From: Escherichia coli
GTDB lineage: Bacteria; Pseudomonadota; Gammaproteobacteria; Enterobacterales; Enterobacteriaceae
Strand: one strand, 5' to 3'
Assembly: GCF_003334305.1 (NCBI RefSeq)
Contig: NZ_QOWS01000062.1
Length of the DNA stretch: 1,079 nt
Part shown: positions 1-1,079 of the stretch, piece by piece
Layout of the letters: every line of letters starts with the position of its first letter
Position numbering within the stretch: the stretch's first letter is position 1
Notes under the pieces: model-generated
What the model was told of the DNA's origin: nothing
The model's database searches: none
The model's input: the letters and a program-made list of their open reading frames with translations, nothing else
Made by a program: the position numbers and the translations under genes

Positions 1-1079
1 AAAAACTGGATCGACAAAGAAGAATATCCGCAATCCGCAGCCATCGACCTGCGTTGCGTAAATATGGTTGCCGATCTGTGGCATGCGCCTGCGCCGAAAA
101 ATGGTCAGGCCGTTGGCACCAACACCATTGGTTCTTCCGAGGCCTGTATGCTTGGCGGGATGGCGATGAAATGGCGTTGGCGCAAGCGTATGGAAGCTGC
201 AGGCAAACCAACGGATAAACCAAACCTGGTGTGCGGTCCGGTACAAATCTGCTGGCATAAATTCGCCCGCTACTGGGATGTGGAGCTGCGTGAGATCCCT
301 ATGCGCCCCGGTCAGTTGTTTATGGACCCGAAACGCATGATTGAAGCCTGTGACGAAAACACCATCGGCGTGGTGCCGACTTTCGGCGTGACCTACACCG
401 GTAACTATGAGTTCCCACAACCGCTGCACGATGCGCTGGATAAATTCCAGGCCGACACTGGTATCGACATCGACATGCACATCGACGCTGCCAGCGGTGG
501 CTTCCTGGCACCGTTCGTCGCCCCGGATATCGTCTGGGACTTCCGCCTGCCGCGTGTGAAATCGATCAGTGCTTCAGGCCATAAATTCGGTCTGGCTCCG
601 CTGGGCTGCGGCTGGGTTATCTGGCGTGACGAAGAAGCGCTGCCGCAGGAACTGGTGTTCAACGTTGACTACCTGGGTGGTCAAATTGGTACTTTTGCCA
701 TCAACTTCTCCCGCCCGGCGGGTCAGGTAATTGCACAGTACTATGAATTCCTGCGCCTCGGTCGTGAAGGCTATACCAAAGTACAGAACGCCTCTTACCA
801 GGTTGCCGCTTATCTGGCGGATGAAATCGCCAAACTGGGGCCGTATGAGTTCATCTGTACGGGTCGCCCGGACGAAGGCATCCCGGCGGTTTGCTTCAAA
901 CTGAAAGATGGTGAAGATCCGGGATACACCCTGTACGACCTCTCTGAACGTCTGCGTCTGCGCGGCTGGCAGGTTCCGGCCTTCACTCTCGGCGGTGAAG
1001 CCACCGACATCGTGGTGATGCGCATTATGTGTCGTCGCGGCTTCGAAATGGACTTTGCTGAACTGTTGCTGGAAGACTA
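1..1079 (+). CDS. gadB: Glutamate decarboxylase (PLP-dependent, GadA/GadB type), internal fragment; 5' and 3' ends lie outside the window (about residues 82-440 of a 466-aa protein)
   Basis: Frame 1 on the + strand is open across the full window (359 complete codons, no stop). Manual translation gives [359 protein letters not shown]. This matches the E. coli GadA/GadB sequence from memory, including the PLP-lysine motif S-x-S-G-H-K. Codon usage is typical of E. coli (about four-fifths of Leu codons are CTG by manual count). The symbol is given as gadB, but gadA is equally possible: the paralogs differ only in the N-terminal ~22 residues, which are outside this window. Confidence 0.96.
562..588 (+). 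other. PLP-binding active-site motif S-I-S-A-S-G-H-K-F; Schiff-base lysine codon AAA at 583-585 (Lys276 in GadB numbering)
   Basis: Translation of 562-588 in frame 1 is SISASGHKF. The S-x-S-G-H-K signature is the conserved pyridoxal-phosphate attachment site of group II amino-acid decarboxylases. Numbering follows from window codon 1 being Lys82, so codon 195 is residue 276. Confidence 0.9.

Follow-up and report, generated by a model that had tools for sequence, protein, structure and literature searches.

A 1,079-nucleotide Escherichia coli glutamate decarboxylase fragment of ambiguous paralogue that is most likely a collapsed gadA/gadB contig

The stretch of Escherichia coli DNA analysed here (1,079 nucleotides in total, hereafter called the window) is the central 77% of a glutamate decarboxylase gene, comprising codons 82–440 of 466. 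Its exact sequence occurs in both paralogues of this gene, gadA and gadB, and its two ends coincide with positions at which these paralogues diverge from each other. The most likely origin of the window is a collapsed repeat, in which the two gene copies have been merged into one contig by an assembler. We assign a probability of roughly 0.85 to the explanation as a whole, namely that the window is a gad fragment of ambiguous paralogue and most likely a collapsed gadA/gadB contig. The gene, the mechanism of its enzyme, the homogenization of the two paralogues and their behaviour in genome assemblies have all been described in previous publications, and the biological news in this sequence is therefore small.

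Frame +1 is open across the whole window (positions 1–1079, plus strand; G+C content of 56%), with no stop in its 359 codons, as had been noticed in an earlier examination of the letters and an ORF list without database searches (the sequence-only reading). The numbers of stops in the other five frames are 8, 19, 13, 10, and 1. None of 20,000 mononucleotide shuffles of the window yielded a fully open frame, and the analytic chance of such an event for one frame is approximately 8e-7. The product of frame +1 is 100% identical to both GadA (PDB 1xey) and GadB (PDB 1pmm) of E. coli over residues 82–440. This is exactly the residue range foretold by the sequence-only reading, which had called the translation near-perfect and had placed the window in the interior of gadA or gadB. 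Two family models lead to the same identification. Specifically, the fragment scores 589.9 bits against TIGR01788, an NCBIfam equivalog model for EC 4.1.1.15, which exceeds the cutoff of 380.4 even though the sequence is incomplete, and it covers positions 67–422 of the 431 in the profile. In addition, the Pfam model PF00282, representing the group II PLP-dependent decarboxylase domain, matches fragment residues 1–302 with an E value of 3.4e-99. The expected enzymatic activity, which is the conversion of L-glutamate to GABA, would follow from the complete identity of the fragment to characterized enzymes.

The coordinates of the window in the gene are nt 244–1322 of 1401, such that codon 82 is complete at its 5′ end and only the first two bases of codon 441 are included at its 3′ end. 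In agreement with what had been proposed from the letters alone, the gene has neither its start nor its stop in the window. The complete genes in which the exact window is found have 466 codons and encode proteins that end with SFKHT. The pattern of natural variation also reflects the reading frame. When eight alleles were compared (four of gadA and four of gadB), 51 polymorphic sites were found in the range of the window, and 49 of these are on codon position 3 of frame +1. Amino acid variation among the eight alleles is confined to codons 153 (D/N) and 384 (D/E). At the corresponding positions of the window, which are 214–216 for D153N and 907–909 for D384E, the encoded residue is D in both cases.

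In E. coli, there are two copies of the glutamate decarboxylase gene, with gadA located beside gadX and gadW, and gadB located in an operon with gadC. The enzyme and the Glu/GABA antiporter GadC together form the glutamate-dependent acid-resistance system. DNA matching the window is present in all 5426 complete E. coli genomes of our collection. The median number of matching places in a genome is two, and their neighbourhoods are either ccp-gadA-gadX-gadW-mdtF or pqqL-gadB-gadC-digH. The best 25 genome records are 100% identical to the window and every one of them is annotated as gadA. Among 40 records sampled at even spacing along the match ranking, three are exact matches.

Several observations concern individual records in this collection. 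Matches to the window occur at 10 places in one complete E. coli genome, compared to the median of two, and amplification of a gad locus or an assembly problem are possible causes. A total of six matching places are located on plasmids. The record NZ_AP027522.1 (positions 1–3722) is described as the 'plasmid' pLR-31_2, a circle of 3722 bp that carries pqqL and the first 294 nt of gadB, with both of the CDSs at its ends being partial. Instead of a genuine plasmid, this record seems to be a piece of the chromosome that was circularized at the gad repeat. In strain 30EVA1 (NZ_CP138423.1, 4388297–4389374), the gadA match is 99.7% identical and includes 1078 record bases against 1079 query bases, which indicates a 1-nt indel in gadA that is either a frameshift or a sequencing error. 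Finally, a gadB-type place in strain D1 (NZ_CP010134.1, 75357–75416) is annotated as 'pyridoxal-dependent decarboxylase' rather than as gadB, and this may be a pseudogene or a truncated copy.

The E. coli enzyme (EcGad) is a PLP-dependent hexamer, and each cycle of its reaction, in which L-glutamate is decarboxylated to GABA with release of CO2, uses up one cytoplasmic proton (PMC12961736). It is active at pH 4–5 and is switched off above approximately pH 5.5–6, when the ordered C-terminal tail plugs the active site and His465 attacks the Schiff base between Lys276 and PLP (PMC12961736). For EcGadB, the same source gives residues 58–346 as the large PLP-binding domain and residues 347–466 as the C-terminal domain. 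By these limits, the plus strand of the window encodes most of the former (residues 82–346, positions 1–795), which is also the subject of the PF00282 match, and the first part of the latter (residues 347–440, positions 796–1077).

The catalytic core of the enzyme is found inside the window. It includes the GAC codon for Asp86 (positions 13–15), which is part of the sequence KNWID that reads from residue 82, and the AAA codon for Lys276 (positions 583–585), which is part of the motif SGHK within a stretch of 12 residues. It also includes the codons for the beta-hairpin formed by residues 300–313 (positions 655–696, as located by codon offset). All three are on the plus strand, and their roles are known from the characterized enzyme: Asp86 binds the gamma-carboxylate of the substrate and belongs to the bacterial Gad signature, Lys276 forms the Schiff base with PLP, and the hairpin shifts across the entrance of the active site when the enzyme adopts its acid-active form (PMC12961736). 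The pH switch of the protein is formed by its two ends (residues 1–15 and the C-terminal tail that includes His465), both of which are encoded outside the window. Complete genes with an exact copy of the window encode the two of them.

The sequence-only reading did not choose between gadA and gadB, and our comparisons bear out this restraint, given that the encoded protein is identical to both GadA and GadB and the exact DNA sequence is present at both loci. Fixed differences between the paralogues, as judged from four gadA and four gadB alleles, are located only at gene nt 6–243 and at nt 1395, and there are none within nt 244–1322. Most of the genomes that have the exact allele carry it at gadA. 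For example, gadA is an exact copy of the window in all five of the exact-match strains that we compared (W2-5, 89-3156, 2014C-3307, 2013C-3033, and FORC_042). Within each of these genomes, the gadB gene differs from the window at six sites, all of them synonymous, which are distributed over positions 153–774 (153, 399, 456, 459, 696, and 774).

When the 5′ region of K-12 gadB was used as a query, no exact-match strains were listed, and a second gadB allele, from strain Z1323PEC0013, recovered them. Copies of gadB that carry the exact window were sought by using a query composed of the gadB upstream region, the 5′ part of gadB, and the window. This search identified four complete genomes at 100% identity, and the exact window is therefore present at gadB in at least four genomes. 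The isolate SY038 (NZ_CM185151.1) has the exact window in both gadA and gadB, and its two genes (L024 15026–16426 and L023 455–1855) are identical over gene nt 244–1394 (1151 nt), differing solely within the first 243 nt and at nt 1395. This isolate is a clean case of a fully homogenized central tract.

These findings can be used to weigh the possibility that the window is specifically the gadB copy, which is co-transcribed with the antiporter gene gadC. The gadB genes that match the window throughout in at least four complete genomes are consistent with this proposal, as is the identity of the encoded protein to GadB. However, the five exact-match strains have the window at gadA and a gadB gene that is six sites away from it, and the best 25 exact matches listed are all at gadA. 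Moreover, every site that distinguishes the loci is outside the window, and so a gadB origin could not be decided from the window alone. We therefore judge a specific assignment to gadB to be very improbable.

Rather, the window is best described as a sequence common to the two genes. Gene conversion between gadA and gadB, which PMC10362622 credits to Bergholz et al. 2007 (Mol Biol Evol 24:2323), keeps the central parts of the two genes nearly or fully identical. Because the window is entirely inside this homogenized tract, because the diagnostic sites and the flanks are outside of it, and because its exact sequence is found at both loci, the window is not assignable to one locus by sequence.

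The length of the window provides a clue to its origin. An exact-sequence look-up revealed that the identical 359-residue fragment is present in 101 blocks of a public assembly collection, and always on contigs that are shorter than 2 kb. All ten of the contigs that we inspected are exactly 1079 nt in length, and the gene has the same coordinates in each of them as it has in the window. They derive from MEGAHIT assemblies of gut metagenomes (k111, k119, and k127), from NCBI draft genomes, and from Logan, and two of the ten are each common to at least 20 samples. The differences between these contigs and the window are almost confined to the six sites at which gadA and gadB differ, where the contigs exhibit mixed combinations of the two genes. 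At four of these sites (399, 456, 696, and 774), the contig QOFN01000082.1 has an N. At the six sites, the window itself has the bases of gadA throughout, and no base-for-base copy of it is present among the ten inspected contigs.

The two genes of strain FORC_042 were used to examine where such contigs are expected to end. In this strain, gadA is equal to the window, and gene nt 1323 is C in gadA and T in gadB. At every k tested from 77 to 141, the outermost k-mers shared by the two genes enclose 1079 nt (nt 244–1322). The shared span is 1250 nt for k values of 55 or less and 926 nt for a k value of 155. The 1323-T variant is found in 209 complete-genome records and is located at gadB in every match listed. 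In four 1323-T strains, the gadA gene is an exact match to the window.

Presumably, short-read assembly with a de Bruijn graph merges the two near-identical copies, and the window would be the whole of the resulting contig. The 5′ end of the window is one base past the last of the 5′ paralogue differences (nt 243), and the 3′ end is one base short of the gadB-specific synonymous variant nt 1323 C>T, which is carried by a minority lineage. By this model, the source genome would belong to the 1323-T lineage, and the bubbles at the internal differing sites would have been merged. The coincidence of its ends with the points of gadA/gadB divergence, which had escaped the sequence-only reading, makes it very probable that the window is a contig of a collapsed repeat, and such an origin would explain why the gene has no start or stop in it. 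A collapse of the FORC_042 type requires that the gadA variant be chosen at every internal bubble. It is possible that this consistent choice reflects a higher read depth of the origin-proximal gadA gene in growing cells, but this is speculation.

We also considered a version of the repeat model in which gadA and gadB of the source genome are perfectly identical over exactly the window. This candidate was rejected, as gadB is six sites away from the window in the five exact-match strains, and the identical copies in SY038 share 1151 nt rather than 1079. Its failure is the reason that the model described above invokes bubble merging and the 1323 C/T boundary.

An alternative explanation regards the window as an excerpt of gadA taken from a longer, correctly assembled chromosome, such that the agreement of its ends with the divergence points is a coincidence or a by-product of how the window was chosen. 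The window is 100% identical to gadA from many complete genomes, including the best 25 matches, all of which are annotated as gadA, and it exhibits no mixture of gadA and gadB variants. As a real and unmixed gadA allele, it could simply come from a finished genome, and the absence of an identical sequence among the ten public 1079-nt contigs is also compatible with this view. However, chance would then have to place both ends at gene nt 244 and nt 1322, where independent assemblers end their contigs and where the k-mer simulation predicts the two end bases. For an arbitrary cut, the probability of such an agreement is approximately 1 in 1400 for each end. Given these considerations, an excerpt from a finished chromosome is an unlikely source, and a collapsed gadA/gadB contig remains our preferred explanation.

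The glutamate decarboxylase gene itself is absent from the list of ORFs made for the window. The list was prepared with a default threshold of 60 amino acids and omits ORFs that run off the ends of the sequence, which is why the real gene is missing from it. As had been noted in the sequence-only reading, the list contains only minus-strand ORFs at this threshold. These are located at positions 320–511 (63 amino acids), 405–662 (85 amino acids), and 810–1025 (71 amino acids), and the longest plus-strand ORF listed is 57 amino acids. The sequence-only reading had also warned that anyone who relied on this list would annotate the region as three reverse-strand hypothetical proteins. Its description of the list is accurate, but the risk appears to be only theoretical, because the gene calls on the ten public 1079-nt contigs consist of the partial plus-strand gene and nothing else.

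The three minus-strand ORFs appear to be spurious. We found no matches to them in NCBIfam, a single match in PHROGs with an E value of 0.081, and nothing in the PDB with an E value better than 0.7, which is the outcome that had been anticipated. Their exact sequences are absent from approximately 15 billion called proteins, even though the DNA is present in thousands of genomes. Natural variation provides further information on each of them. All ten of the SNPs in the ORF at 320–511 change an amino acid, and the ORF at 810–1025 has an internal stop in the natural gadB allele of strain 28Eco12. In the ORF at 405–662, all nine SNPs are silent, and its amino acids are unchanged in every allele examined.

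This apparent conservation of the 85-residue ORF can be understood from its register relative to the gad gene. The ORFs at 405–662 and 810–1025 share the antisense frame that has its wobble positions at the same bases as the sense frame, and the ORF at 320–511 is in the third frame. In the wobble-coincident frame, 82% of the sense-synonymous transitions and 58% of the sense-synonymous transversions are also synonymous in the antisense direction. Because the wobble positions of the two strands coincide, the probability that all nine SNPs are silent is approximately 0.12 without any antisense constraint. The length of this ORF is also unexceptional. When the codons of the gene were shuffled synonymously 2000 times, the longest minus-strand ORF averaged 68.5 ± 17 amino acids, and a length of at least 85 was reached in 33% of the shuffles. 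The occurrence of three minus-strand ORFs of at least 60 amino acids is less common, and was observed in only 1.9% of the synonymous shuffles. We do not regard this value as evidence of coding, and have no explanation for it beyond chance and the local arrangement of codons.

Other features of the window were also sought. No sigma-70-like promoter was found on either strand, an Rfam scan of both strands at E values up to 1 returned nothing, and a repeat search identified just a trivial 14-nt palindrome at 654–673. On the minus strand, there are two weak terminator-like hairpins (window positions 364–380 and 28–40), with 0.9 such structures expected from shuffles, and we judge them to have formed by chance.

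A real antisense gene overlapping gad, with the ORF at 405–662 as the foremost candidate, could account for the unchanged amino acids of that ORF and for the rarity of three such ORFs in synonymous shuffles. However, silent SNPs at nine of nine sites are expected with a probability of approximately 0.12 from the constraint on the sense strand alone, and one-third of the synonymous recodings create an ORF of this length or longer. The family, structure, and called-protein searches and the promoter search all lack support for such a gene, and the two other ORFs are disrupted by amino acid changes at every SNP or by a natural stop. For these reasons, the existence of an antisense gene is exceedingly improbable, and the three ORFs are best viewed as spurious.

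The codon-register antisense frame is a distinct feature of the window. We considered and rejected the possibility that the listed minus-strand ORFs are this shadow frame, which has one stop and runs off both ends of the sequence, as a result of which it is invisible in the ORF list. Its single stop in 359 codons is located at window positions 574–576, opposite the sole TCA codon on the sense strand, of which it is the reverse complement. Codon use in the gad fragment includes no TTA or CTA, and CTG is used for 22 of the 28 leucines.

The main value of these findings is for annotation practice, and there is little new biology in the window itself. The appropriate label for a 1079-base contig of this kind is a partial glutamate decarboxylase gene representing both gadA and gadB, and such a contig should not be scored as three hypothetical proteins on the reverse strand. 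Because collapsed contigs can mix the two copies, the SNPs inside of them are unfit for typing. In addition, on any short contig the real gene will go unlisted in ORF tracks from which open-ended ORFs are dropped.

Comparison with known systems places the window firmly among published examples. Its product has the same amino acids as E. coli GadA (b3517) and GadB (b1493; PDB 1xey, 1pmm, and 2dgk) at residues 82–440. At the DNA level, it differs from K-12 gadA by 2 bases in 1079, both of which are synonymous, and from K-12 gadB by 5 bases in 1079. Relative to the complete proteins, it lacks residues 1–81, which include the helix-forming N-terminal segment that distinguishes GadA from GadB, and residues 441–466, which include the autoinhibitory C-terminal tail and His465. 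Glutamate decarboxylases from other bacteria and from plants (PDB 5gp4, 7x4y, and 3hbx) share the same fold family and align with the whole fragment, with E values of approximately 1e-107 to 1e-111. However, these proteins are far less similar, with scores of approximately 360–377 bits compared to 855 bits for the E. coli enzyme. Judged by these alignments, the window is the E. coli gene itself rather than a distant homologue.

Likewise, the location of the window within a tract where the paralogues share alleles resembles the gene conversion reported by Bergholz et al. 2007, and in the terms by which that work is credited in PMC10362622, it appears to represent nothing new in kind. The behaviour of the two genes in assemblies also has a precedent, wherein gadA/gadB, tufA/B, rRNA genes, and IS elements break contigs in shotgun assemblies of E. 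coli genomes (PMC3045373). The gadB break described in that study is approximately 1150 bp, which is similar to the 1151-nt tract shared by the two genes of SY038. The 1079-base form represented by the window differs from this precedent in that it also requires the 1323 C/T difference, which is carried by a minority of genomes (209 records).
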